Shown one piece after another: positions 1-52,699 of a stretch of DNA of 64,000 nt. The DNA comes from Candidatus Sungiibacteriota bacterium (GTDB taxonomy: Bacteria > Patescibacteriota > Minisyncoccia > Sungbacterales > JACQCQ01). The notes beneath the pieces were generated by a model. It saw only the letters and a program-made list of their open reading frames with translations. It was not told the DNA's origin and did not search any database. A program made the translations under genes and the position numbers. The stretch lies in the NCBI GenBank assembly GCA_016201505.1, contig JACQCQ010000013.1, positions 80,830 through 144,829 on the forward strand, given 5' to 3'. Position 1 is the stretch's first letter. The number at the start of each line of letters is the position of its first letter.

Positions 1-367
1 TGTTGACGCGGCGCATGATGAGCGGCGTTACGACTTCTTCTTCGCTCTGGCCCAAGGCGTATTCTTTTTCCGTGCGGCTTCTTAATTTAAATAAAATATC
101 AATCGAGTCCCAGCCGCCGGTCGTCTGCCAAATAGATTTAGGATGCAGCAGCGGCATCAAAATCTCTTCTCCGCCGATGGTGTTCATTTCCTGGCGGACA
201 ATCGTCTCAATCTTCCGCAGTACGCGAAGGCCAAGCGGCAAATAGGAATAGACACCAGCCATCAATTTTTCAACATACCCGGCACGCGTAAGCAGCCGGG
301 CATTGATGGCCACTTCATCTTTGGGCGCCTCGCGGGTGGTACGCGCAAACAGTTGAGACAGTCTCAT
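1..367 (-). CDS. proS: Prolyl-tRNA synthetase, N-terminal fragment. The start codon is rc of 365-367 and the gene runs off the left edge. It is not in the ORF track because there is no stop inside the window.
   Basis: Manual minus-strand translation gives MRLSQLFARTTREAPKDEVAINARLLTRAGYVEKLMAGVYSYLPLGLRVLRKIETIVRQEMN, which matches the conserved ProRS N-terminus (class II aaRS motif region). Confidence 0.8.
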   Translation of the reverse strand, partial: MRLSQLFARTTREAPKDEVAINARLLTRAGYVEKLMAGVYSYLPLGLRVLRKIETIVRQEMNTIGGEEILMPLLHPKSIWQTTGGWDSIDILFKLRSRTEKEYALGQSEEEVVTPLIMRRVN

Positions 368-409
368 CAAAATCAGTTTAATACGAAAAAGAGAACCCCT
401 CCAGCGTGT

Positions 410-451
410 ATAAAAAACAACGCCCCGATTCGCGCATGCGCGAATCGGGGG
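410..451 (-). terminator. Rho-independent terminator downstream of the 514..1152 minus-strand gene.
   Basis: Perfect hairpin CCCCGATTCGCGCATGCGCGAATCGGGG (423-450) preceded on the plus strand by an A-run, which is a U-run on the minus strand. Confidence 0.6.
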
Positions 452-513
452 CCAAGGGTTAAAGGATCAACGTGATAGAGTGACCCGCGGAGGGTCTGCC
501 TGCCGCAGGCAGG

Positions 514-1152
514 TCAAGCCGCCACAAGGAAAGAGGAATTGCGGGAGAACACCCGGTCGCCCTCATACCACCTGATCGGATCCGCGACAACGCGCGCAAA
601 CAGGTGCCACTCGCAGGCATTCCGGAACACGAACACTGCACGGAGGATGCCTTTGGCATCCTTGACATAGAAGATGTTGGCGCGGCCGTCGGTGAGGAGC
701 GGACCCGGCTCGCCCTGTGACTGATGCGTGATCAGCCAGTTGATCTGGGCGAGGGTCGTCTCCTCGTGCTCCGCACCGAGCTCCTGCCGGATCTCGCGGT
801 CGAGGGCGTTCCTTGTGAGGGACGCGTAGGCGAGAGTCACCTCGGCCTGCGGCTCCTCTTCACCCGCGAGGAACCACTCCCTGAAGTTCCCCCAGAGATG
901 CACTCCGTCATGGACGAGGCACGAAGCGATGAACTTCTCGGGGAGGGCAGGGATGGTGAGGGTGTTGATGGGGGCGAGGAGTTGGGGCTTTGCCGGCTGC
1001 GGCGTCTCGGCCTTCACCCAGCAGGTCTCCTGCCGCAGAAACTTCTTCAGCTCCGCTTCCCATCGTTCGCCATCTGCACCCAAGAGATTCTTCTCCAACT
1101 GATGGCGCAGTCCGAGGTTAGCCCGGAGCGCGCGTCTGAGCATAGGGTTCAT
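514..1152 (-). CDS. Hypothetical protein (212 aa) in a high-GC (~60%) island; no family recognised.
   Basis: Long clean ORF with its own terminator. Composition is strongly atypical versus the AT-rich neighbourhood. Confidence 0.5.
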   Translation of the reverse strand: MNPMLRRALRANLGLRHQLEKNLLGADGERWEAELKKFLRQETCWVKAETPQPAKPQLLAPINTLTIPALPEKFIASCLVHDGVHLWGNFREWFLAGEEEPQAEVTLAYASLTRNALDREIRQELGAEHEETTLAQINWLITHQSQGEPGPLLTDGRANIFYVKDAKGILRAVFVFRNACEWHLFARVVADPIRWYEGDRVFSRNSSFLVAA

Positions 1153-1381
1153 GGTCAGACTCCCTTCCTTTAAGTTTTAGCGCCTCATCTTCGCTGGGCG
1201 CCACTTGAATAGTACTATAATACCTAAAATAAGATGTGTCAATAATCGCGTCGCCTGGGGAGACTACTGGTGTGTTATTTCTATCGCTTTATAGAGATTC
1301 TATCTCCAGGCCTTTAAATGGCGAACTAAACCACGAAACAATCGCCCTTCCATTTACTGATACTTACATTACACATTACAA

Positions 1382-1419
1382 ACTAGTACATTTTATCCGA
1401 TCGGATAAAATGTACTAGT
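1382..1419. promoter_or_regulatory. 38-bp perfect palindrome ACTAGTACATTTTATCCGA|TCGGATAAAATGTACTAGT (operator type 1, copy a). It abuts the stop codon of the regulator gene.
   Basis: Perfect 19+19 inverted repeat. Related copies occur at 1978-2015 and 17034-17071. Confidence 0.6.
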
Positions 1420-1976
1420 TATCTATGAATACCAAACTTATACAATAAATACTTTTCTGAAGTAACTGAATCAGCCACAATATAATGCACGTATTTTCCG
1501 ATTTGGAAGGATTCTGCAATAAAATCTATCTCATCTTTACATTCATATGGCCAAACCCAAAGACTTTTTTGCAGCTGTACGCAGCCAAGATCAATCAGTT
1601 TATGGCGCAACGCATCCCTGCCTCTTCTCAATTGTTCAGGAATATCAAACGCAATCATCCTCCATTTGCCATCCCACATCGGAAAGGTGGGCAATACGAT
1701 CGATTCAAGGTTGTAAATGAGAGCTTTCCTTTTACCTTCTTCGGTCAGGGTAATCCTTGTTTTTCCGCCGATCTCTTTATATTCAATATATTTCTTGCGT
1801 CGTAAATAGTTAATCGTCCAAATAAATTTTTCTCGTTCCTGCTTTTGTTTTATTTCTTTACGGAGCGCAGAGAGCAATTTGCTTGAAAAATTTTTGTTCC
1901 CCAAAGCAAGATAGAAAGCTCCCGCATTCAATAAAAGTTTTAGGAGCTGGCTCGTATACCCATGGTGATTCCTCAT
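1419..1976 (-). CDS. Small transcriptional regulator with an N-terminal winged-helix and a C-terminal Cas2/PaaX_C-like domain (PaaX-family-like). The true start is probably the internal Met of ORF 1419..2267.
   Basis: The C-terminus MIAFDIPEQLRRGRDALRHKLIDLGCVQLQKSLWV resembles the Cas2/PaaX C-domain pattern (I/V)xFD(I/V)...RR..L...L...G.R.Q.S(V/L)(F/W). A wH-like segment KKYIEYKEIGGKTRITLTEEGKRKAL is also present. The longer ORF would overlap gap and read through the palindrome. Confidence 0.55.
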   Translation of the reverse strand: MRNHHGYTSQLLKLLLNAGAFYLALGNKNFSSKLLSALRKEIKQKQEREKFIWTINYLRRKKYIEYKEIGGKTRITLTEEGKRKALIYNLESIVLPTFPMWDGKWRMIAFDIPEQLRRGRDALRHKLIDLGCVQLQKSLWVWPYECKDEIDFIAESFQIGKYVHYIVADSVTSEKYLLYKFGIHR

Positions 1977-1977
1977 A

Positions 1978-2015
1978 ACTAGTATTTTATTCCCGATCGG
2001 ATAAAAAATACTAGT
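1978..2015. promoter_or_regulatory. Operator type 1, copy b (imperfect palindrome ACTAGTATTTTATTCCCGA|TCGGATAAAAAATACTAGT), 2 nt upstream of the regulator start codon.
   Basis: Same half-site core as 1382-1419. It overlaps the expected promoter/RBS region of the regulator, suggesting autoregulation. Confidence 0.55.
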
Positions 2016-2068
2016 TCTGCTTGGATGCTCGTATACTCCGATGCCTATGAGCCGATCATAAGCCTCGA

Positions 2069-3073
2069 CTACATCTTGCCTACCCTCCGCACGTGCTCGA
2101 CGAGGGTCGAGGTGTAACCGTACTCGTTGTCGTACCAGGAAAAAACTTTCACTAGATCGCCGTCGATCACCTGCGTCAGCGTTAGATCCACAATCGCGCC
2201 GTATGGCTCGCCGATGATGTCGGTGGAAACAACTGGATCCTCTGTAACTTTTAAAACTTTTTCCCATCTTGTGTCGCCCGCCGCTTTTTTAAAAATAGAG
2301 TTTACTTCCTCGACAGTGGTAGGTCGTCCAACCAGCGCTGTTATATCCGAGATTGACCCAGAAATAACGGGAACGCGGAAGGCCATGGCGCCGAATTTTC
2401 CGAGAAGGTCGGGGATGGATTGAATCACGGCTTCCGCCGCCCCGGTGGTTGAAGGCACGATGTTCGCCGCCGCGGCCCGACCGCGGCGCATGTCTTTTGT
2501 ATCCGGCCCGTCAACTAATTTCTGGGTTGCCGTATAGCCGTGCACCGTCGACATGCCGGCTTTTTTAATGCCGAGCGTCTCTTTTAGAATTTGCATCACG
2601 GGTGCCGTGGCATTCGTCGTGCAAGAGGCATTCGCCGAAATCTTTTTAATCGATCCAGCAAATAGAGTGTCGTTGACGCCAACCAGTGCCGTCGTGACTT
2701 CACCGGTTGCGGGGGCGGTGATCACCACCCGGCGCGCGCCAGCACTCAAATGCGCCTCGGCTTTAGCCGAGTCCGTATAGAATCCGGTGGACTCAAGCAC
2801 GACATCAATGCCGTATGACTTCCAGGGCAGTTTTAGCGCCTCTTTTTCGGCCAGAACCTTAACCTCCCTCCCATCAACTACCAGAAATCCTTCTTTTGCT
2901 TTTACTACTTTATCGTAACGGCCGTAGACGCTGTCGTATTTCAATAGATAGGCCAGCGTCTTGGTGTCGGTCAAATCATTAATCGCCACCATATCGAACT
3001 CCGGATCGCCAAAGGTGCGCCTGAAAAAATTACGCCCGATTCTTCCGAAACCATTGATGGCAATTTTTATCAT
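2069..3073 (-). CDS. gap: Glyceraldehyde-3-phosphate dehydrogenase.
   Basis: MIKIAINGFGRIGR Rossmann N-terminus; active-site ASCTTNA motif; full-length GAPDH similarity. Confidence 0.9.
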   Translation of the reverse strand: MIKIAINGFGRIGRNFFRRTFGDPEFDMVAINDLTDTKTLAYLLKYDSVYGRYDKVVKAKEGFLVVDGREVKVLAEKEALKLPWKSYGIDVVLESTGFYTDSAKAEAHLSAGARRVVITAPATGEVTTALVGVNDTLFAGSIKKISANASCTTNATAPVMQILKETLGIKKAGMSTVHGYTATQKLVDGPDTKDMRRGRAAAANIVPSTTGAAEAVIQSIPDLLGKFGAMAFRVPVISGSISDITALVGRPTTVEEVNSIFKKAAGDTRWEKVLKVTEDPVVSTDIIGEPYGAIVDLTLTQVIDGDLVKVFSWYDNEYGYTSTLVEHVRRVGKM

Positions 3074-15686: not shown

Positions 15687-15718
15687 AAAAGTTCGATAGA
15701 CTAGTCTATCGAACTTTT
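15687..15718. promoter_or_regulatory. Operator type 2, copy a: AAAAGTTCGATAGACT|AGTCTATCGAACTTTT, 32-bp perfect palindrome between the TrpR-like gene stop and the rseP start.
   Basis: Perfect inverted repeat sharing the core GTTCGATAGACTAGTCTATCGAAC with copies at 16149, 20417, 29422 and 35243. Confidence 0.6.
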
Positions 15719-15804: not shown

Positions 15805-16143
15805 CTAATGTTCCCATGAAACCTTTGAATTTTTCTGATTTTTGTGGATCAGAATAATTTTTGCATAGCCTCCCGCCGAACGTACTAGCTCCCTTTCGAC
15901 TGAATACACGGTGCTCTTACTTATTTTAAGAATTCTACAAATCGCAATCACATCAAATCCTTGTTCGATGAAAAACGCAACCATAAAACGTTTTGCGAGC
16001 ATCACTTTCTCGCTCCGCGTGAAGAATTCAGAAAGAAACAACGAGGCGTCGACTTCTCGAAGCTTCCCTAAGGCTCTAAACAGCGAGGAGATTATTTCCT
16101 GTTCGAATTCTTTTGAAATTTTATTCTGTGATACTCTCGGCAT
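15805..16143 (-). CDS. TrpR-related YerC/YecD-family small DNA-binding protein.
   Basis: 112 aa. The segment EKVMLAKRFMVAFFIEQGFDVIAICRILKISKSTVYSVERELVRSAGGY matches the YerC/YecD Trp-repressor-like HTH pattern. Confidence 0.75.
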   Translation of the reverse strand: MPRVSQNKISKEFEQEIISSLFRALGKLREVDASLFLSEFFTRSEKVMLAKRFMVAFFIEQGFDVIAICRILKISKSTVYSVERELVRSAGGYAKIILIHKNQKNSKVSWEH

Positions 16144-16148
16144 AGTAT

Positions 16149-16180
16149 ATTAGTTCGATAGACTAGTCTATCGAACTAAT
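16149..16180. promoter_or_regulatory. Operator type 2, copy b: ATTAGTTCGATAGACT|AGTCTATCGAACTAAT, 32-bp perfect palindrome 5 nt upstream of the TrpR-like start codon and overlapping the tlyA stop.
   Basis: Perfect palindrome with the same 24-bp core as 15687-15718. Confidence 0.6.
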
Positions 16181-16904
16181 TGACAGTGTAGCGAAAATGA
16201 ACGAGGTACTCAACATTACCCTTTGCGCCCCGAATTGGTGATTCGGCGGATCCAGCTACTTCCCAGCCCTGAAGTTTCGCCCAGTTTAAAAATTTATGAA
16301 GCGCAGTTTTTCGAATTTCCGCATCGGTTACAATGCCGTGATGAATCTCGCGTAAGTCTACTTCATATTGCGGTTTAAAAAGAAATACCCCTTCGGCGGT
16401 ACTCGCTAAAAACTTTTTTACCGATAGCAGAATATATCTAAGCGAGGTAAACGAAACATCACAGGTGACAAATTCTATTGGTTCCGGCAATGAGACAAGA
16501 TAAAGCAAATTCGTCTCTTCCATCACGACGATGCGCGGATCCTCGCGCAATTTTAAGGCCAGCTTCCCGCGCGCCGTATCAATAGCATAAACTTTTTTGG
16601 CGCCATGATTTAATAAGACTTCCGTAAATCCGCCAATGGCCGCGCCAATATCGGCGCAAACTTTTCCTTCGACGTTAAGGTCAAACTTTTCAAATGCGCC
16701 TTCTAATTTATAGCCGCCGCGGCCGACGTATTTTCTCGGCTCGCGCACTTTTAAAATCGCCTCTTGCAGATAAAGCTCTGCCGGCGAAACGGCTTTCCGG
16801 CCTCCGACAAAAATATCGCCTTCGGTTACGCGAATAAAAGCTTCGGCTTTACCTTTCACAATCCCCCGCTCGATCAAAATTTCGTCCAGTCGCTTCTTTT
16901 TCAT
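16176..16904 (-). CDS. tlyA: TlyA-family rRNA 2'-O-methyltransferase (hemolysin A-like).
   Basis: S4-like N-terminus, YVGRGGYKLEGAFEKF, SAM-binding CADIGAAIGGFTEVLL and VYAIDTARG motifs. Confidence 0.85.
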   Translation of the reverse strand: MKKKRLDEILIERGIVKGKAEAFIRVTEGDIFVGGRKAVSPAELYLQEAILKVREPRKYVGRGGYKLEGAFEKFDLNVEGKVCADIGAAIGGFTEVLLNHGAKKVYAIDTARGKLALKLREDPRIVVMEETNLLYLVSLPEPIEFVTCDVSFTSLRYILLSVKKFLASTAEGVFLFKPQYEVDLREIHHGIVTDAEIRKTALHKFLNWAKLQGWEVAGSAESPIRGAKGNVEYLVHFRYTVN

Positions 16905-17033
16905 TTTTCTATCCTACTACAGACAAACTAGAAACGCCGCACGGAGTACACCCCGTGCGGCGTCTTCGCTTTCGCTCTTCGAGCTAAGCTACTAAAGCTT
17001 TAGTTAATGGCTGGATTTTCAATTCCTATACCA

Positions 17034-17071
17034 CTAGTACCTTTTATCCGATCGGATAAAAGGTACTAGCT
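17034..17071. promoter_or_regulatory. Operator type 1, copy c: ACTAGTACCTTTTATCCGA|TCGGATAAAAGGTACTAGC, in the frr-tlyA intergenic region.
   Basis: Near-perfect 38-bp palindrome with the same core TTTTATCCGATCGGATAAAA as copies at 1382 and 1978. Confidence 0.55.
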
Positions 17072-17283
17072 ACTGCTTAAAATTAAGTTTATACAAAATA
17101 CTGCAGGCGGTACAAACAAACAGCGCCTGAGGCCAGCCTCGGGATCTAGATCGCCCTTCTCAAGCTTGCATCCGGGGAGTTCCCACTTCCCCTGCAAAGA
17201 GCCCGAGGCGCGACGGCCAACCAGCACTTTTCCATCACGTTCGAGAATCAGCGCTGTTACTGTAGTTTGAGCCGTGATGCCCC

Positions 17284-17841
17284 CTAAACGGTCATGATCT
17301 CTCTTTCTTTGTGGGCGCCTGTATCTTCAATTTTTTTATTCATTTCGTCAATCAGTTTTTGGATTTCGCTTTTGCCGCGGAAATGGTCGTCTTTCGAAAT
17401 CGTTTTATCTTTTTCGGCACGATCCAATTCCTTCATTGACTCTTCGCGAACGCGTCGAACAGAAATTTTGGCCTCTTCAATTTTTTGATTCAGCAATTTA
17501 ATCAATTCGCGCCGCCGCTCTTCAGTTAATGCGGGGAGTGTCAGCCGAATACCATTTGAGTCGGCAATCGGATTCATACCGAGATTCGATTGCTGGATGG
17601 CTTTTTGAATCGGCTCCATGGCGCCCTTATCCCACGGGGCAATCATGATTTGGCGCGGCTCGGGGACACTGATGGCGGCAATCGCCCGCAATGGCTGTTT
17701 TGCGCCGTAATATTCAACTTCTAAATTTTCAACCAAGGCCGGCGTCGCCCGCCCGGTGCGCAGCGATAAAATCTCACCGCGAAAATGAATTAATGATTCT
17801 TCTAACTTCGGTTTTAATCCGTCGAGAGTTTGGGCAATCAT
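17284..17841 (-). CDS. frr: Ribosome recycling factor.
   Basis: Full-length RRF similarity (VENLEVEYYGAKQPL, IRLTLPALTEERRREL, ISKDD). Confidence 0.9.
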   Translation of the reverse strand: MIAQTLDGLKPKLEESLIHFRGEILSLRTGRATPALVENLEVEYYGAKQPLRAIAAISVPEPRQIMIAPWDKGAMEPIQKAIQQSNLGMNPIADSNGIRLTLPALTEERRRELIKLLNQKIEEAKISVRRVREESMKELDRAEKDKTISKDDHFRGKSEIQKLIDEMNKKIEDTGAHKEREIMTV

Positions 17842-20416: not shown

Positions 20417-20448
20417 TATAAGTACGATAGACTAGTCTATCGTACTTA
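20417..20448. promoter_or_regulatory. Operator type 2, copy c: ATAAGTACGATAGACT|AGTCTATCGTACTTAT, with a symmetric T-to-A variant in both half-sites. It lies upstream of holB.
   Basis: 32-bp perfect palindrome; the half-site change is mirrored, preserving dyad symmetry. Confidence 0.55.
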
Positions 20449-20545
20449 TGCGTATGCAATCTAAGGTTCACAAAACACCCGACATCTGCCAACTGGCGGA
20501 TGTCGGGTCGATCTTTGCATTACTACACCTACGTACTCTCACCGT

Positions 20546-23337: not shown

Positions 23338-24558
23338 TTAGAATGCGGAAGTTCCAAGCGGCGTGCCAAGGCCGGTTGGCCCGTCGTAGCCGGTAAGAGC
23401 GGTGCAAAGATAAGTGCCTGCGCAGCTGCCATTGGAGCCGGAGGTAATGTCGTGCATATTCGCTGAATTGCCGAGTGCATACGGCAGCGAGGCGGGAGAA
23501 GAGGAACCAACCGTTCCCTGAAGCCCATAGACGGCGGCAATCAGCGGACTCGACAAACTTGTCCCGCCGACCTTAAACCAGCCTGACTTGCCCTGATACC
23601 GAACACTGTCATACACCGCTGCTCCCGTGTTGGGGTCTGCCACTGCCGAGACATCGGCAATGGCCCGATGAGTACACGACGCATCGCTTTGCCAGGTTGG
23701 TTTTGATTCATACTGACTGCACCCCGACCCACTGCCTGACCAGGCAGTCTCGCTGTTATAGGAGTTATCTGAATTTAAGAATAACGTCGTCCCGCCAACG
23801 GCGACAACGTATTGAGAGGCGGCCGGATACTCCACGCCGTAGCCTGCGTCTCCCGAACTGAAGGTGAATACAATTCCAGAATGATTGAAGTGCGCGTCGT
23901 AGCCAGTCTCACCAGAAAATTCCGCCGAGCCGTATGAATTCGAGACTTCGTTGGCGCCGAGCGTTACCGCGCGATCCACCGCGGCCATTAAATTGGCATA
24001 TGAATTTGAGCTGGCTTCGACAAGCAGGATGCCGCAGTTTTGGCACATAGCGTGAGCTACTTCAACGTCGAGCGAAATCTCAAGCGCCCAACCGGAATTG
24101 ACCGAAGGATAATTAAATGTCTGACCAAATTGATTTACTTTTTGAAAGCAGGGGGAAGCCGAGGCGGCAATTGGTCCGGCACACTGAGGCAACACCGGAA
24201 TGGCGTAGGTTTTACTGTAGGTGGCGAGATCCGAATAAATATTCGGGTCATCATACGCGTCCACGATGGCAATAATATTTTTTGTAGCAGAAGTTGTGGG
24301 AACACTATAGGCCACGTGAAATTGGGTCGGTCCAAATCCGTTTGGCAACGATGTCGTTTTCGGCGTCGATCGATCAGATTCGGTGATCACGCGCACATGA
24401 CAGCGGACATCGCCATCCCTCGGATGACAGACTGCGATGTGCGGCTCATGAAGAAGCTTACTGTCATCTCTTTCATTATCAGTTTTGGCGACCGCCACCG
24501 CCGCCACAAGCAACGTAGCCGCAATGACACTAAAAAAGACTTTATCGGGATAGTTCAT
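23338..24558 (-). CDS. Secreted S53 (sedolisin-type) serine-carboxyl peptidase (S8/S53 superfamily).
   Basis: Signal/TM N-terminus. Sedolisin triad context: E-x-S-L-D-V-E (EISLDVE), SSGDAG, and GGTSLSSP. Confidence 0.75.
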   Translation of the reverse strand: MNYPDKVFFSVIAATLLVAAVAVAKTDNERDDSKLLHEPHIAVCHPRDGDVRCHVRVITESDRSTPKTTSLPNGFGPTQFHVAYSVPTTSATKNIIAIVDAYDDPNIYSDLATYSKTYAIPVLPQCAGPIAASASPCFQKVNQFGQTFNYPSVNSGWALEISLDVEVAHAMCQNCGILLVEASSNSYANLMAAVDRAVTLGANEVSNSYGSAEFSGETGYDAHFNHSGIVFTFSSGDAGYGVEYPAASQYVVAVGGTTLFLNSDNSYNSETAWSGSGSGCSQYESKPTWQSDASCTHRAIADVSAVADPNTGAAVYDSVRYQGKSGWFKVGGTSLSSPLIAAVYGLQGTVGSSSPASLPYALGNSANMHDITSGSNGSCAGTYLCTALTGYDGPTGLGTPLGTSAF

Positions 24559-24699
24559 AACCTCGTAGGCATCATACCAGACCTTGTGTCATATTTCAAA
24601 CACCGACCTCTGCAAAACTAAGACCATTCTGCCGTCGGGCGGTTTTCGTTTTATGAAAACCATGGGGGAGAAATTATGATACTCCGAGCTGTACTCATT

Positions 24700-24752
24700 T
24701 CCTGCGATCGCAGGAAATGAGTACAGCGAATCAAAAGCCGCGCGATGCGCGG
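24700..24752. terminator. Tandem hairpins: a 20+20-bp perfect palindrome followed by a GC hairpin with a T-run.
   Basis: GCTGTACTCATTTCCTGCGA|TCGCAGGAAATGAGTACAGC followed by AAAAGCCGCGCGATGCGCGGCTTTT. Confidence 0.5.
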
Positions 24753-25075
24753 CTTTTGTGTTGCTCAAAAAATTTCCCGCCTTCTCCGCCAGCTGGCAGA
24801 TACGGAAGGGCGCAGCAACTGTTTTATCCCTGAATGAATTCCAACTGTTCCGACTTTGGTCTTCCGAAGCTCCGTGAGGAGCGCAGGAGACCGCGCTGTA
24901 ATGTCCCCATTACAACGACTAGTCTCGGTGTATCGTGTTTCAGCCGTCCGAAGCTCTTGCGAGCGTAGGAGACTTCCGAGACCAAACACGTCTTTGGCTC
25001 GCCGTAGCTCCGTGAGGAGCGTAGACGGCTTTCATTCTCCAGGATGAGATAAGGAGGCGAGGCGCTTGCAGTACT

Positions 25076-29344: not shown

Positions 29345-29995
29345 TTCTACCGCCAATTTGGACTATATCATCACCCCGATGTTCATCGGGGGTCCCGCGT
29401 GTAGTCTCTGAGGGCTCTCTGCTATAAGTTCGATAGACTAGTCTATCGAACTTATAGAAACAGGTTGCCTGCTGATTGTTTCGTTGCGCGTCTTTGCAGT
29501 TTGCAAAACATTTCCGCGGACACAACGAAGTGTTCCAGTCCCGCAAGCCTCCCCACCGCAATACACTGATGTATTGTAGTGGCATGACTCACAGGATTCC
29601 CGAATCCATCTTTTCTTACGGCCAATAGGGCCGCGGGATTGCGATTTGTAACTACTCCGCCTTCGCTAAAAGCTTCGGCGGACAAGTCGTTACACTCGCA
29701 GACAAATCGGGAACATATAGCGAGATTTTCTTATGACGTATTACTACGCCAACTTCGCACCAAGTTTTTCTAACTTCACGAAGTTTGCAGCTTCTTATTC
29801 ATCTGGTACGGTCAGTCGTGCCTCGCTCTAGCGAACCACTCTCAATTTTAAATTTCCAATTTCTAATTTTCAATGAATGTCCTAATGTCTCAATTTCCAA
29901 AGGTTTGGGGTATTGAATCATTAAGAATTGACTGAAAATTGCAAAATTGATCATTGCAAATTGTGTGCCTCACAAAAGTGAGACACGACTTCTTC
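29345..29995 (-). other. About 540 extra nt in the 16S region between E. coli positions about 400 and 515. It contains the operator type 2 palindrome and sequence blocks shared with the LAGLIDADG intron.
   Basis: Blocks GCGTGTAGTCTCTGAGGG (29396-29413) and GTTGCCTGCTGATTGT (29464-29479) also occur at 26222-26238 and 26261-26276 within the LAGLIDADG ORF region. Conserved 16S resumes near 29995 (CTTTACAGACCGAAGTCCTTCTTCCTGCACGCGGCG). Confidence 0.5.
29422..29457. promoter_or_regulatory. Operator type 2, copy d: CTATAAGTTCGATAGACT|AGTCTATCGAACTTATAG, 36-bp perfect palindrome, located inside the 16S insertion.
   Basis: Identical 36/36 to the copy at 35243-35278. Confidence 0.55.
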
Positions 29996-30237: not shown

Positions 30238-30296
30238 ACCCCGCCTAAATTTTTGAGCTTTTTCATACTTTCAAAAAGCTCAAAAATTTAGGCGGG
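30238..30296. repeat. 25-bp perfect-stem hairpin expansion in the 16S V1-V2 region.
   Basis: CCCCGCCTAAATTTTTGAGCTTTTT-catactttc-AAAAAGCTCAAAAATTTAGGCGGGG. Confidence 0.5.
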
Positions 30297-30624
30297 GACC
30301 ATTGAGTATTAGCCAATCTTTCGGCTGGTTATTCTCATCTCGGGGGTAGATTCCAAGGTATTACTGAACTCGTTCGCCGCTAACTGGCAAATTGCGCGTA
30401 GCTAATGGAAAATAGTATTGCTACTATAAGCCATCCGCCAATTGCTATAAGCCAATTCGCACGACTTGCATGCCCTATCCACGCCGCCAGCGTTCATCCT
30501 GGACCAGGATCAAATCCTCTAATAGATCAGTTAGTTTTTCAGTTTACTAGTTGCCTAGTTCACATATTGCTAACTGCCGAGAACAAGAGGAAGAAAGAAA
30601 CGAATTTTTAGAAAACTCGCGAAA

Positions 30625-31806: not shown

Positions 31807-31830
31807 TGTGCTACACCCATTATTTTTATT

Positions 31831-31858
31831 CACTCCAATACTTTAAAGTATTGGAGTG
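31831..31858. promoter_or_regulatory. Operator type 3, solo copy: CACTCCAATACTTT|AAAGTATTGGAGTG, 28-bp perfect palindrome.
   Basis: Identical to the palindrome at 36548-36575 flanking the second TrpR-like gene. Confidence 0.55.
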
Positions 31859-31876
31859 CTTCAATAATGGTGTATT

Positions 31877-35242: not shown

Positions 35243-35278
35243 CTATAAGTTCGATAGACTAGTCTATCGAACTTATAG
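35243..35278. promoter_or_regulatory. Operator type 2, copy e (36-bp perfect palindrome) upstream of the membrane GH gene.
   Basis: CTATAAGTTCGATAGACTAGTCTATCGAACTTATAG, identical to 29422-29457. Confidence 0.55.
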
Positions 35279-36547: not shown

Positions 36548-36575
36548 CACTCCAATACTTTAAAGTATTGGAGTG
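36548..36575. promoter_or_regulatory. Operator type 3, copy a: CACTCCAATACTTTAAAGTATTGGAGTG. It abuts the stop of the TrpR-like gene and lies 10 nt upstream of the GH1 start.
   Basis: 28-bp perfect palindrome. Confidence 0.6.
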
Positions 36576-36986
36576 CTATACTTTCACCATGTTCCATCGA
36601 CCCCTTGGATCTGATTTTCTCGGTAAGCTCATAAAGAGTTTTTCAATAGTTTCAAACGTATTCTTGAAATTTTTGCTCCTCTCAAGATTTTTTATAAACA
36701 TCCTGAATCCCCTTCCATCGCGCTGAAGTTTTTCACTAATCGTGCCTATGGTAGTTTGGCTAACTTTTAAAATTCGTTCTATCTGCTGATAGGAGTAATC
36801 CTCTTCGAGCAAAAGCGCTATTAAGATTCTTTTTCCGAGCATTGCTTTTTCAGTAGTAGTCAATAAATCATCAAAGAACAATTTCAACGAGCCTCTATCC
36901 CGCAAAATTAAGGTGGCTTCGACGATTCTGCTTGACAGATCATCTATATGGCCTGGCGTTAATTTATAACGTGATAGATGCGGCAT
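36576..36986 (-). CDS. TrpR-related YerC/YecD-family small DNA-binding protein (second paralogue).
   Basis: 136 aa. FFDDLLTTTEKAMLGKRILIALLLEEDYSYQQIERILKVSQTTIGTISEKL closely follows the YerC/YecD consensus (FFDDL.T..E...L..R...A..L.EG.SY..I.......S..TIS). Confidence 0.75.
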   Translation of the reverse strand: MPHLSRYKLTPGHIDDLSSRIVEATLILRDRGSLKLFFDDLLTTTEKAMLGKRILIALLLEEDYSYQQIERILKVSQTTIGTISEKLQRDGRGFRMFIKNLERSKNFKNTFETIEKLFMSLPRKSDPRGRWNMVKV

Positions 36987-36992
36987 GGCTGT

Positions 36993-37020
36993 ACTCTAAT
37001 ACTTTAAAGTATTGGAGTAA
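36993..37020. promoter_or_regulatory. Operator type 3, copy b: TACTCTAATACTTTAAAGTATTGGAGTA (1 mismatch), 6 nt upstream of the TrpR-like start codon.
   Basis: Near-perfect palindrome with the same core as 36548-36575. Confidence 0.55.
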
Positions 37021-37032
37021 AGTTTTTGGTGG

Positions 37033-49259: not shown

Positions 49260-50735
49260 TTGGCAATTGTACGGCTTTTAGCTAGAGTTCTCGATATGAG
49301 GAAAACAACCCGTCGAGCCGTTTTTTATTTGTTTAGCGGGCTTTTTTTGATCACAACACCTTTGATCGTATTCTATGCCTTCGGTTATTCATTTGATTTC
49401 CAAAACGGTGTCGTGGTGCCTACCGGTGGCGTATTTGTGAAAGCCAACGTTGGCGCGATTCGCGTTTTGGCGAATGGAAAGCTCATGAAAGAAACAAATT
49501 TTTTAACTAAGGGCGCATTGATATCCGGCCTCTCGTCGGGCCATGTCGAAGTAGAGGTAGCGAAAGACGGATACATTCCTTGGAGAAAACCAGTCGGTAT
49601 CGAAGAGCAAGTTATTCAAGAATACCGCTCGATTCTTCTTGTACCCGAGGCCTTGCCGGCTGATCTCGTATACGGTACTACGAGCCAGGCGTCTTCAAGA
49701 CAGACTGTTTCTCTCGAGCTTTTGCCCGATCCAACGGGGAATTTCATTTTTTGGGCCGCAAAAAAAAGAAACTTAACCCGGCTACGCGTGATCAGTCGCG
49801 ATGGGGTTGAAACGCGGGCTCAAATCTCCCTGGAACCAGGCGAATCGTATCTTTCTGCCTCTTGGAATCCCAGCGGTAACGTAGTACTCGTTTCAACCAA
49901 CCGGCGTGGGCATACGATCTGGCGCGCTTTATCGGCTAATTCAAAATCCGTCCTACCGGTGTTTGATGAAAAAACTATTTTGCGTACGAGCACCTCAACC
50001 AGATCGGAAACCATCTCTGAAGCCTCGCTTAGCTTGATCACCTGGTCGCCGGCTGATATTGATGAATTTCTTGTGCTGGCAAACGGCGCGATTTACCGCT
50101 GGAATTTAAGCTCCGGGCTAGTCAAAAAAATTATTTCGAGTGCCAGATCGTTTGCCCGATTTAATGGAAATATCCTCTATTCAACTCAAAGCGGATTTAT
50201 TGCCACTGCCGATCTATCCGGCGAACATATAGAATCGCTGGATCATCCGGGTCTTTACGTTGCAAAAAGTCCGCTCCGCTATTTTCAAAATAAAGACGGC
50301 GTTTTGGCTTTGATCGACTCTGCCGGGGGACTTTATCTAGAAAACCCGAGCACAAGAAAATTCTCCCCCCTGACAACCGAGATCCATGAAGCTGAATTTT
50401 CCTCCAACACCGCCGAACTTGGCTACACCCAATCCGGCACATTCTCAACCATTGCTCTCGCTGATGAGACAACCCAGCCGTTCCGCAGAATGTACACCAA
50501 GTCGGCCATATTCACGACTGACGAAATTCTCCATTTTATATGGCTCGGCAATCCAGCAGCTCATATTGTCTATACGACCGCGCGGGGCGTATTTCTGGCG
50601 GAAACCGATCCGCGTCCGGGCGCAAATATCGTGCCGCTCCGCCGCGGAGACTACCAGATTGTCGAATCTCCCAACGACCCAAACAGTTTTTATTTCTCGG
50701 ACGGAGAAATTATTGAACGACTGACGATACGATAA
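49260..50735 (+). CDS. Membrane-anchored hypothetical protein with a PEGA-like domain and a beta-propeller-like C-terminal region.
   Basis: N-terminal TM helix. SGHVEVEVAKDGYIPWRKPV PEGA-like motif. Repetitive beta-rich C-terminus. Confidence 0.5.
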   Translation: MAIVRLLARVLDMRKTTRRAVFYLFSGLFLITTPLIVFYAFGYSFDFQNGVVVPTGGVFVKANVGAIRVLANGKLMKETNFLTKGALISGLSSGHVEVEVAKDGYIPWRKPVGIEEQVIQEYRSILLVPEALPADLVYGTTSQASSRQTVSLELLPDPTGNFIFWAAKKRNLTRLRVISRDGVETRAQISLEPGESYLSASWNPSGNVVLVSTNRRGHTIWRALSANSKSVLPVFDEKTILRTSTSTRSETISEASLSLITWSPADIDEFLVLANGAIYRWNLSSGLVKKIISSARSFARFNGNILYSTQSGFIATADLSGEHIESLDHPGLYVAKSPLRYFQNKDGVLALIDSAGGLYLENPSTRKFSPLTTEIHEAEFSSNTAELGYTQSGTFSTIALADETTQPFRRMYTKSAIFTTDEILHFIWLGNPAAHIVYTTARGVFLAETDPRPGANIVPLRRGDYQIVESPNDPNSFYFSDGEIIERLTIR

Positions 50736-50763
50736 GGTCATCCGATAACATGAAAAGTCCTAA

Positions 50764-50808
50764 AAAACATTCTCAAGTTCTTAAGAACTTGAGAATGTTT
50801 TTTAGGTT
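50764..50808. terminator. Bidirectional rho-independent terminator: 30-bp perfect palindrome flanked by A6 and T6.
   Basis: AAAAAACATTCTCAAGTTCTTAAGAACTTGAGAATGTTTTTT between convergent genes. Confidence 0.7.
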
Positions 50809-50822
50809 TCGTCTCCAGATGA

Positions 50823-51776
50823 CTACGGAAAGAATCTGCGATAGGGAGCCGAAATGATAGAACCGAATGTGGCGAGAAAGACCACCGCGACAACGAGCCA
50901 GCCGATAAAAGGAATAATTTTAAGAATTTGATAGAGCAGGACACCGATGACGATGGTTTGCCAGGAGATGTGACTCTCGCCTTTTTTATACCACAAAGAG
51001 ACATACCGGCCGAGTAAAATCGCCGCCACCGCCGATGAGACCACGATAGTTACGATATAAAGCAGAAGCCCGATCACGCCAATTGGTATGCCGATAATGG
51101 TGACAAAGGCAACGACAACCAGAATTGGAATACCAATCAAGCCAAGAAGTCCGCGAAGAATTTCTTTGCCAAAATTCGTCTCGGCCGCATGCACCACCTG
51201 CGATACCCAGGGGCCAAAGAAGTACCAAACAAGAAAGGCTAAAACAATGCCCATCAACGTTTTCATCACCCACCAAAAGCCAATAACGCCGAGGAGTCCC
51301 CCCGCGTGATTCTCGCCCGGTTTACGCGTATATTGTTTTACTGTTCCATGAACGACGCCCTGATTTTGAATATCACCGCCCGCCAGCAATAAATCCCCGC
51401 CGATGACAGCCCCCGGCAAAATTTTTACTCTCCCACCGGCCGCCAAAACATCGCCTTTCACTTGGCCCGCAATCGTCACCTCACCGCCCGCCACCCGCAG
51501 GCTATCGCCGACATTGCCCGAAATATTAATCGTCCCGCCGGCCAGCATGGCGCTTTTAGCGACATTCCCATTTACATTTACATTCCCGCCGGCCGCCGTC
51601 AGATCGCCGTTTATGTTGCCTTCAATGTTCAATGTCCCGCCGGCAATATAGAGATTGCTGTTGACTGATGCGCCTTTAGGCAGTAAATACTGATCGCCCG
51701 AATAAAATTCAGCGGCGAGCGAGACAAGCGGCACCAAAAGACCGAGGGCCGAAATGAGAATTAAGAGTTTTTTCAT
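50823..51776 (-). CDS. Bactofilin-like beta-helix repeat domain fused to a C-terminal multi-TM domain, adjacent to mreB.
   Basis: Signal/TM N-terminus. Repeats AGGTLNIEGNINGDLTAAGGNVNVNGNVAKSAMLAGGTINISGNVGDSLRVAGGEVTIAGQVKGDVLAAGGRVKI match the bactofilin (DUF583) pattern. Then about 5 TM helices. Confidence 0.55.
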   Translation of the reverse strand: MKKLLILISALGLLVPLVSLAAEFYSGDQYLLPKGASVNSNLYIAGGTLNIEGNINGDLTAAGGNVNVNGNVAKSAMLAGGTINISGNVGDSLRVAGGEVTIAGQVKGDVLAAGGRVKILPGAVIGGDLLLAGGDIQNQGVVHGTVKQYTRKPGENHAGGLLGVIGFWWVMKTLMGIVLAFLVWYFFGPWVSQVVHAAETNFGKEILRGLLGLIGIPILVVVAFVTIIGIPIGVIGLLLYIVTIVVSSAVAAILLGRYVSLWYKKGESHISWQTIVIGVLLYQILKIIPFIGWLVVAVVFLATFGSIISAPYRRFFP

Positions 51777-51850
51777 ATCAATTTCAACATACCATTTCTT
51801 TACCTTTCGTCCCACTTTGGGTGATAAATAATCCTGGTTTGATTTGCCGA

Positions 51851-52699
51851 TCAAAAACTACGCGCGGGCTGCTGGATTTGGGATTCTGCCCTAAACGCCC
51901 GATGAGCGCTTACCGAAGAATTTATTTGTTCGGGTCTCGCCTGCTTGATAATGACAGCCTGTCCTGTCGGGAGCCGAATGACTGGTTCATGATACCTGCG
52001 GCTGAACTCTTCAACGGCTTTATAGGCCCCGGGCCAGGACATAAATCCATAATCATCACAGACCATTACTCCGCCCGCTACGAGGCGAGGGTAGAAGTAT
52101 GCGAAAGCCGCCAGGGTGGGTTGGTAGAGATCCAAATCGACATGCACAAACAGATACTGCCTCTCGGGGACGTGCGCAAAGCTATCCGGTATCCAACCTT
52201 TATGGTACTCAATAAAATCGAAATCCTTCAGACTTTCTCGGACATCCTCTAGCGAATAGGCCATGCGGCCGCCGTCACTGCCGATTTTACTTGCGGGTAA
52301 TGATTTTTCGATGTCAAACTCGCTCGTAACATCTTCTTTCGTTCTAGCAGAGAGTCCTTGGAAGGAGTCGAACGCGTATATCTTATGCCTCCCGCCTTTT
52401 AGCACCGAACATAATTGAAATAGGGTAGTACCTCTGGCAATTCCCGCCTCCACAAAGTTCTGTTCCGGGTAGTTATGAAACCTCTGGCTGACATACGATG
52501 CGAGTTGAATCAAAGTATAGTTACGCACTTTGCTGGGGAAAAAATCTCCCTTATGAGTGGCTTTCAACGAATCTTGATATATCTCGTGGAACTTCTGGTC
52601 GTTTAACCAAAGATACCGCGGCTGATTGTTGAGACTCTGGGCGAGACGCATGACTTCATAGCCAAAATAGTTCGCAATTCGCCTGATTATTTTTCTCAT
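51851..52699 (-). CDS. TylF/MycF-family class I SAM-dependent O-methyltransferase.
   Basis: VEAGIARGTTL, IYAFDSFQGL, HVDLDLYQPT, GGVMVCDDYG: the macrocin-O-methyltransferase family pattern. Confidence 0.7.
   Translation of the reverse strand: MRKIIRRIANYFGYEVMRLAQSLNNQPRYLWLNDQKFHEIYQDSLKATHKGDFFPSKVRNYTLIQLASYVSQRFHNYPEQNFVEAGIARGTTLFQLCSVLKGGRHKIYAFDSFQGLSARTKEDVTSEFDIEKSLPASKIGSDGGRMAYSLEDVRESLKDFDFIEYHKGWIPDSFAHVPERQYLFVHVDLDLYQPTLAAFAYFYPRLVAGGVMVCDDYGFMSWPGAYKAVEEFSRRYHEPVIRLPTGQAVIIKQARPEQINSSVSAHRAFRAESQIQQPARSF

Follow-up and report, generated by a model that had tools for sequence, protein, structure and literature searches.

PaaX of Escherichia coli recognizes the operator TGATTC(N27)GAATCA, 39 base pairs (bp) in length, and represses its own promoter by steric hindrance, while its C-terminal domain binds the inducer phenylacetyl-CoA (PMC9493321). 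A small relative of this repressor, here called mini-PaaX, is encoded in the stretch of DNA analysed in this study (64,000 nucleotides (nt) of contig JACQCQ010000013.1, hereafter the window), which belongs to an uncultivated groundwater bacterium of Candidatus Sungiibacteriota known from a metagenome assembly. Its gene is bracketed by two copies of a long palindrome. Like PaaX, the repressor of phenylacetate catabolism (E. coli W, structure 8a39), and the PaaX-like proteins 3l09 and 3kfw, mini-PaaX combines an N-terminal winged helix with a Cas2-like central domain. Yet, the PaaX chain in 8a39 counts 305 amino acids (aa) against 185 for the window protein, and since the PaaX C-terminal domain is absent from the latter, it was considered a two-domain protein of its own and not a PaaX orthologue. 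Judging from sequence, the likeness would extend to the DNA: PaaX has a long palindromic operator with widely spaced half-sites at its own promoter, and the site upstream of the window gene reads ACTAGT(N26)ACTAGT over 38 bp, ending 1 nt before the ATG. The 38-40 bp length of the palindrome is a fitting one, since a PaaX-type dimer is known to span such an operator. In contrast to the PaaX case, the window palindrome is symmetric over its whole 38-40 bp, displays a CGATCG centre and has a second copy at the stop codon, and no paa genes adjoin it. Our results thus support the presence of a PaaX-type regulator without effector domain, carrying its own putative operator on both flanks. No description of this bracketed arrangement was found in the searchable literature, nor anything joining PaaX with Cas2 or with taxa of the Candidate Phyla Radiation (CPR).

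Two other known designs bear comparison. Repetitive extragenic palindromic (REP) elements occur in dozens to hundreds of copies and are associated with the HUH/Y1 transposase RAYT, whose genes are flanked by REPs. As in such a REPtron, a palindrome borders the window gene on both sides and is found at other places in the genome as well; the gene product, however, is a winged helix-turn-helix (wHTH) plus Cas2-like protein instead of an HUH/Y1 enzyme, there is only a handful of copies, and in at least one lineage the locus is vertically inherited. In the looping systems of lac (O1/O2), deoR and gal, the operator at the promoter is matched by a second one located downstream, at a distance of a few hundred bp, and the two putative operators of the window are arranged likewise. 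The putative loop of the window would differ in enclosing the complete gene of the regulator itself, and the arrangement is conserved family-wide.

The main features of the locus, together with a third palindrome copy, are as follows (positions are those of the window):

1419 to 1976, minus strand: mini-PaaX gene, 185 aa, ATG at 1976-1974 and TAA at 1421-1419
1381 to 1420: downstream palindrome A1, perfect over 40 bp, AACTAGTACATTTTATCCGA followed by TCGGATAAAATGTACTAGTT, with a 2-nt overlap with the stop codon
1978 to 2015: upstream palindrome A2, degenerate, ACTAGTATTTTATTCCCGATCGGATAAAAAATACTAGT, ending 1 nt before the ATG
17033 to 17070: solitary third copy A3, ACTAGTACCTTTTATCCGATCGGATAAAAGGTACTAGC, located 3' of a truncated NUDIX gene, with a terminator-like hairpin and tlyA further downstream

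These three copies had been recognized in a first-pass annotation, with slightly different limits. The palindrome at the stop codon is indeed perfect and does overlap that codon, but it measures 40 bp instead of 38 (the exact 38-mer being 1382-1419); the near-copy at the start codon exists, at a distance of 1 nt and not 2; and the third copy lies at 17033-17070, not 17034-17071. No run of T follows A1. A2 is 83% self-complementary, with 3 mismatches in its central 20-mer. A3 displays 3 mismatches to A1, two of which form a symmetric pair (A to C in the left arm, T to G in the right arm), so that A3 is still a perfect palindrome over 36 bp. Searches with the 20-nt core and with half-sites returned A1, A2 and A3 as the only matches in the window, without any isolated half-site. 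In 100 shuffles of the window, neither the 38-mer nor the 20-mer core was matched even once, the observed number being 2-3.

The limits of the regulator gene proposed in the first-pass annotation agreed with both the open reading frame (ORF) and the homologue alignment. The mechanical ORF extends to 2267; homologues of 183-190 aa align from residue 1, and therefore the 185-aa start (ATG at 1976) was retained and not the longer ORF. The protein is 99% identical to HY220_04040 of a Candidatus Sungbacteria metagenome-assembled genome. Its earlier description as a Cas2/PaaX-like winged-helix protein was borne out by profile and structure comparisons. PaaX_M (PF20803, 'PaaX central Cas2-like domain') matched residues 100-173 with E=1.8e-23 and 82.8 bits, versus a Pfam cut-off of 24. 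Scores with TIGR02277 (PaaX, 30.2 bits) and TIGR01573 (Cas2, 18 bits) were, respectively, far below the cut-off of 264.55 and below that of 24.5. PaaX_C gave no Pfam match in the protein, whose chain ends at residue 185, and the N-terminal part displayed no significant Pfam match. The AlphaFold model (pLDDT 83.8) shows a canonical winged helix of order a1-b1-a2-a3-b2-b3 followed by a ferredoxin-like domain:

residues 4-18, 30-41 and 45-60: helices of the winged helix, 45-60 being the recognition helix (AlphaFold model)
residues 64-77: wing (AlphaFold model)
residues ~100-173: Cas2-like ferredoxin domain (Pfam PaaX_M and AlphaFold model)

When this model was compared with solved structures by Foldseek, the best match was E. 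coli PaaX 8a39 (183 aligned columns); Cas2 structures came next for the second domain, and winged-helix regulators for the first.

The ferredoxin-like fold of residues ~105-168 matches several structures of the Cas2/VapD type. The window domain nevertheless differs from Cas2 by its fusion to a winged helix, by a TIGR01573 score below cut-off and by its surroundings: no CRISPR array of spaced repeats was found in the window, and the genes adjoining mini-PaaX are gap and an uncharacterized 212-aa gene without Pfam match, neither of them being cas1 or paa. A search against defence and phage families yielded only weak Cas2 matches, at E ~7e-4 at best for the PADLOC Cas2 models. Some family members carry the database label Cas2, and the motif FDIPE...R...LQKSV of the window protein presumably echoes the Cas2 signature. 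Residues W101, D102, R106, F110, D111, P113, R120, S138, P143 and C146 were invariant in 81 family sequences, and E114, Q136 and E149 were nearly so. The invariant Asp, Gln and Ser, which we take to be typical Cas2 residues, are missing from the PaaX-like Rv0674. The invariant residues of the Cas2-like domain may be where a ligand or a metal is bound.

Within the mini-PaaX family the bracket is a shared trait, and it is conserved across a large, mostly CPR ensemble (1,203 clusters at 50% identity, E<=1e-30). Palindromes were recorded in 80 homologous loci from metagenomes, completed with several more obtained by exact look-up, when they had arms of at least 11 nt with at most 2 mismatches and a spacer of at most 4 nt, and lay no further than 150 nt upstream of the start or 200 nt downstream of the stop. 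Such a palindrome was present upstream in 39/75 loci (52%) and downstream in 32/73 (44%); the background density elsewhere in the same loci was 0.2 per kb, which corresponds to ~0.03-0.04 expected per search interval. Copies within one locus matched at 32/36 positions, versus 15/36 between loci, and in the outer 24 nt the numbers of shared positions were 20.9 and 8.4, respectively. As copies match within a locus and not between loci, each gene has a private palindrome on both sides. The centre escapes this privacy: in 44 sites, CGA/TCG was nearly invariant (its T, C and G positions were kept in 38, 38 and 43 sites), positions 8-11 from the centre were A/T only and positions 12-16 were variable. 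Neighbouring genes are diverse and include hrcA/grpE, dnaK/dnaJ, uvrC, DnaX and TruA, among others. One DnaX gene upstream of a homologous regulator (L091, 39-2351) was found to hold an intein, with Pfam matches to Hint, Intein_splicing and LAGLIDADG.

Away from the gene, copies were rare. A single distant one was recorded in ~153 kb of homologue flanks. The 22-base core was further compared with 596 Gb of GTDB representative genomes, which do not include the source genome, and gave a single match, in the Parcubacteria genome SURF_53 (contig L007), where 28 bp are identical to the window palindrome although the TrmD proteins are only 38% identical. Viral contigs contained 0 matches to the core. 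This rarity indicates that the palindrome is not REP-like, and the generic REP-like repeat was rejected as an explanation on the basis of three window sites, no isolated half-sites, one distant copy in ~153 kb, one GTDB match and none in viruses. The operator-like reading offered by the first-pass annotation was therefore supported, the candidate operators being arranged in a family-wide bracket with locus-private sequences, with rare distant copies and with the length of a PaaX operator. At SURF_53, the solitary palindrome is adjoined by an IS5-family transposase split into two ORFs, likely a frameshift pseudogene (L007, 4068-4857).

We favour, with fair confidence, a mini-PaaX repressor that would control its own gene and for which the 38-40 bp palindrome would be the binding site. 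A dimer would sit on the palindrome, its two winged helices reading the variable outer bases ~12-17 bp on either side of the centre, while the CGATCG centre and the flanking A/T tracts would face the conserved Cas2-like dimer. The upstream site would extend over the ~40 bp that precede the ATG. Since a -10-like hexamer falls within this site, the bound protein would silence its own promoter, probably a leaderless one, in the way that PaaX represses Px. Solitary copies such as the one at 17033-17070 might constitute a small regulon or be relics. The signals to be considered around the three copies are the following:

1984 to 1989, minus strand: -10-like hexamer TAAAAT, within the gene-proximal arm of A2, 7 nt before the ATG
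2055 to 2082, minus strand: weak promoter-like site TAGGCA-16-TATGAT, at the very end of gap
1214 to 1242, minus strand: strong sigma-70-like promoter TTGACA-17-TATAGT of the next gene (514-1152, minus strand)
17066 to 17284, minus strand: truncated NUDIX remnant, N-terminal third only, running into A3

No Shine-Dalgarno sequence was found between TAAAAT (1984-1989) and the ATG. The closest subfamily (52-59% identity) has the same organization: in 7/7 members only 0-13 nt separate the end of the upstream palindrome from the ATG, and in 7/7 the gene-proximal arm contains a -10-like hexamer (TATAGT, TATAAT, TAGAAT or TAAAAT) 7-13 nt before the ATG, with no Shine-Dalgarno sequence between. The mRNA would accordingly be leaderless or nearly so, with its core promoter inside the putative operator. 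In other subfamilies a Shine-Dalgarno sequence occurs 17-20 nt after the palindrome, and the leaderless detail is not universal. Alternatively, if the promoter-like site at 2055-2082 were used, A2 would be placed in a 5' leader of ~70 nt and the operator would act as a roadblock without promoter overlap. No terminator was predicted between gap and the regulator.

In one lineage the regulator has a constant position, flanked by a DUF362 Fe-S protein gene and by convergent truA. Regulators of this lineage share 64-97% identity and the TruA proteins 69-90%; having diverged about as much as TruA, the regulator is vertically inherited. The inner half-site TCGCAWTTTTAG was kept across this divergence, a conservation that points to purifying selection. 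The outer triplet, for its part, varies symmetrically on both arms and in step with one recognition-helix residue: for residue x in KRSE-x-F, the residue/triplet pairs are G/TAG, S/GAG, N/CAG, H/GGG and A/TGG. A crude covariation scan over 44 pairs placed window K50 and DNA position 13 among the top pairs, and the protein-DNA mutual information was 0.22 for the recognition helices versus 0.16 for the Cas2-like part, both values being noisy. As the scan was noisy and followed phylogeny, the covariation was counted as suggestive only. When the two copies of a locus were compared, 8 changes were compensated and 45 affected one arm, which was not decisive.

To our knowledge, next to nothing is known of how Patescibacteria (CPR) regulate their genes, and few of them have been cultured. 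Ready-made predicted regulator-site pairs are now at hand for ~1,200 clusters, each with a private site of 30-50 bp, and because of this privacy in vitro assays or a heterologous reporter would suffice to test them, with no need to grow the organism. Since the outer operator bases change with one recognition-helix residue, a simple recognition code and a set of non-interfering regulators might be obtained.

The role of the downstream copy is less straightforward. The promoter of the next gene (1214-1242) lies ~140-160 bp beyond A1 and does not overlap it. Among the 29 loci having both a downstream copy and a called downstream gene, this gene is convergent in 16. A downstream copy serving as the operator of the next gene was therefore rejected as a general rule, on account of these 16/29 convergent cases and of the distance between A1 and the next promoter. 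In the truA lineage the copy is kept even between convergent genes. We infer that it is an auxiliary operator, which would likely co-operate with the upstream site through a loop of ~600 bp and may also, as a protein-dependent roadblock, stop transcription leaving the gene or entering it from neighbours. In two syntenic loci, the downstream palindrome has a tRNA-Gln(ttg) gene behind it, at ~45-80 nt at most (L091, 3823-3898, and L092, 3579-3650), and there the copy could act on the tRNA promoter. The window itself contains no tRNA genes.

The third copy occupies the spacer between frr (17284-17841, Pfam RRF) and a tlyA-type FtsJ gene (16176-16904), and it does lie beside a decayed NUDIX-like remnant, both as first annotated. 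The remnant matched Pfam NUDIX with E=4e-7 and 30.5 bits (cut-off 21.1), covering only positions 3-50 of the 134 in the profile. A terminator-like hairpin (16932-16965) stands between A3 and tlyA, 28 nt before the tlyA start, and no promoter-like site was found between A3 and tlyA, which makes control of tlyA by A3 doubtful. NUDIX genes recur near these elements: besides the remnant by A3, an intact one is located downstream of the SURF_53 palindrome (L007, 5065-5592) and another directly upstream of the L092 regulator (2279-2830). An ancestral NUDIX-regulator locus was considered and rejected, because the intact NUDIX proteins of L007 and L092 have no detectable similarity to the window remnant; orthology is thus unsupported and we regard the recurrence as a coincidence.

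The first-pass annotation had also pointed to a similar stop/start bracket in two other cassettes of the window, and both were recovered, around TrpR-like genes. These cassettes, and a further solitary palindrome, are listed here:

15805 to 16143, minus strand: TrpR-like gene, 112 aa, bracketed by palindrome family B at 16145-16184 and 15687-15718
36576 to 36986, minus strand: TrpR-like gene, 136 aa, between trmD and a GH1 glycosidase gene, with palindromes at 36989-37022 and 36548-36575
15687 to 15718, 16145 to 16184, 20418 to 20449, 29420 to 29459 and 35243 to 35278: palindrome family B, AAGTTCGATAGACT followed by AGTCTATCGAACTT
31828 to 31861, 36548 to 36575 and 36989 to 37022: palindrome family C, CACTCCAATACTTTAAAGTATTGGAGTG
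24688 to 24727: solitary perfect 40-bp palindrome with CGATCG centre, GCTGTACTCATTTCCTGCGA followed by TCGCAGGAAATGAGTACAGC

The three regulator cassettes are scattered among housekeeping genes and their palindromes differ. Like mini-PaaX, the TrpR-like (YerC/YecD-type) regulators have private palindromes at start and stop, solitary copies elsewhere and a bracket kept in orthologues; unlike it, they display an unrelated fold consisting of a helix-turn-helix only, and other palindrome sequences. Three copies of family B are solitary in other intergenic regions, and its upstream bracket copy overlaps the tlyA stop codon. The order trmD-TrpR-GH1 is kept in three orthologous loci. Two of them (L094 and L095) have palindromes of their own on either side of the regulator gene, in which the outer arms (ACTCCAATAC) are conserved and the centres vary, and the third (L096) has an upstream palindrome only, of different sequence. 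As unrelated TrpR-like regulators and their orthologues show the bracket, this design is not tied to the Cas2-like domain. At the trmD-TrpR-GH1 locus the downstream copy lies 10 nt before the next co-directional gene and can act as an ordinary operator. The palindrome at 24688-24727 directly follows a terminator-like hairpin (24729-24761), and ~108 bp separate it from a promoter-like site further downstream (24571-24599, minus strand), which belongs to a 406-aa gene (23338-24558). It has the CGATCG centre design of the mini-PaaX sites and probably serves a paralogous mini-PaaX whose gene lies outside the window; no second family member was detected in the window by tblastn.

Several observations weigh against an autoregulatory repressor. 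A half-site of ~19 bp that is palindromic throughout exceeds the needs of one winged helix, and symmetric arm changes (A3 versus A1, or the outer arms of orthologues) also fit selection for base pairing. The downstream copy often lies between convergent genes (16/29), where there is no promoter to control, A1 and the palindrome at 24688-24727 sit ~90-160 bp upstream of promoter-like sites and not over a promoter, and A3 precedes a terminator-like hairpin, again not over a promoter. Only about half of the homologous loci reached the palindrome threshold, some start-codon calls in these loci being wrong. The protein-DNA covariation tracks phylogeny and is not statistically independent. Finally, the conservation of the Cas2-like domain exceeds what dimerization needs, which hints at a further activity.

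One alternative is an RNA-level element, in which stem-loops at the 5' and 3' ends of the mRNA, instead of operators in double-stranded DNA, would control translation, stability or processing; the Cas2-like domain would perhaps bind or cut them, and RNases are known among Cas2 and VapD relatives. The stems are strong (as RNA, A1 folds at -26.1 kcal/mol and the two others at -18.6 and -26.5 kcal/mol, the z-scores being -7.5, -3.5 and -6.1), the upstream one ends 1 nt before the AUG, and arm changes are often symmetric. Moreover, 30 mismatches are still G:U pairs in the sense RNA, versus 15 that are G:U only on the antisense. This 30:15 bias is weak, since 63/108 mismatches are wobble pairs on neither strand, and the inner half-site is conserved in sequence beyond what pairing alone would explain. 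If transcription starts at the ATG, as the position of the -10-like hexamer suggests, the upstream stem would even lie outside the mRNA. The winged helix, the PaaX-like architecture and the operator-length match all favour DNA, and no Rfam family matched within window positions 1-3000; an RNA element was accordingly judged unlikely. A different function independent of any protein, namely bidirectional terminators or insulators isolating a small gene in a compact genome, agrees with the occurrence of strong hairpins exactly at the gene boundaries and with the lack of a separate predicted intrinsic terminator between gap and the regulator. Yet, a run of T (at least 5 T in the next 8 nt) follows only 5/35 downstream and 6/39 upstream copies, the two ends share a locus-private sequence that terminators do not need, and the A/T-rich stems, with their conserved CGATCG centre, differ from the G+C-rich terminators present elsewhere in the window, for instance at 24729-24761 and 16932-16965. 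Intrinsic terminators were rejected for the rarity of T-runs (5/35 downstream) and the A/T-rich arms, A1 and A2 not having been called by the terminator scan, and structural elements as a whole were the least probable of the explanations considered.

A selfish or mobile cassette deserves separate discussion, since a unit made of palindrome, gene and palindrome could be excised or inserted at its palindromes by its own Cas2-like nuclease, as in a REPtron or through an integration that duplicates a repeat, and leave solitary copies as empty or relic sites. Such an origin would recall the RAYT genes flanked by REPs. It would also agree with the Asp, Gln and Ser residues, presumably Cas2-typical, that are invariant here and lost in Rv0674, with direct duplicates reaching beyond the symmetric part at some loci (L070 and L044), with the five different gene contexts of the closest homologues (52-59% identity), and with the positions of A3, which abuts the truncated NUDIX gene, and of the SURF_53 copy, which adjoins the IS5-like pseudogene. 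However, the locus is fixed in one lineage, where divergence is about equal to that of the neighbours, no identical cassette was found in two contexts and copies are very few. No similarity outside the palindrome was found among A1, A2, A3 and L007. The two copies are not consistently oriented with respect to each other (7 direct, 3 inverted and 5 equal), for which reason a target-site duplication was rejected. In addition, TrpR-like regulators share the bracket without having a nuclease-like domain, the mini-PaaX family is almost absent from viral contigs, and the D-x-P-E motif may be a mere helix cap. We therefore hold mobility to be quite improbable. The more specific proposal that the wHTH-Cas2-like protein is a site-specific enzyme cutting or joining DNA at CGATCG, which would turn the repeat-gene-repeat unit into a mobile or recombining cassette and solitary palindromes (such as 17033-17070, truncating the NUDIX gene) into its footprints, is a shade more improbable still. 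If true, this enzyme cassette might be an evolutionary relative of the repeat-recognizing machinery from which CRISPR adaptation borrowed Cas2.

Two additional symmetric elements were recorded in the window. One, an inverted repeat at 30239-30297 (CCCCGCCTAAATTTTTGAGCTTTTT...), has perfectly matching arms of 25 nt around a 9-nt loop and bears no relation to the three palindrome families. The other is a long palindrome:

50759 to 50806: perfect 48-bp palindrome with centre CTTAAG, extending to 54 bp with 2 mismatches at 50756-50809

It is located between two convergent ORFs (49260-50735, plus strand, and 50823-51854, minus strand, bactofilin-like), its arms contain A6/T6 runs, and it may be a bidirectional terminator or another operator.

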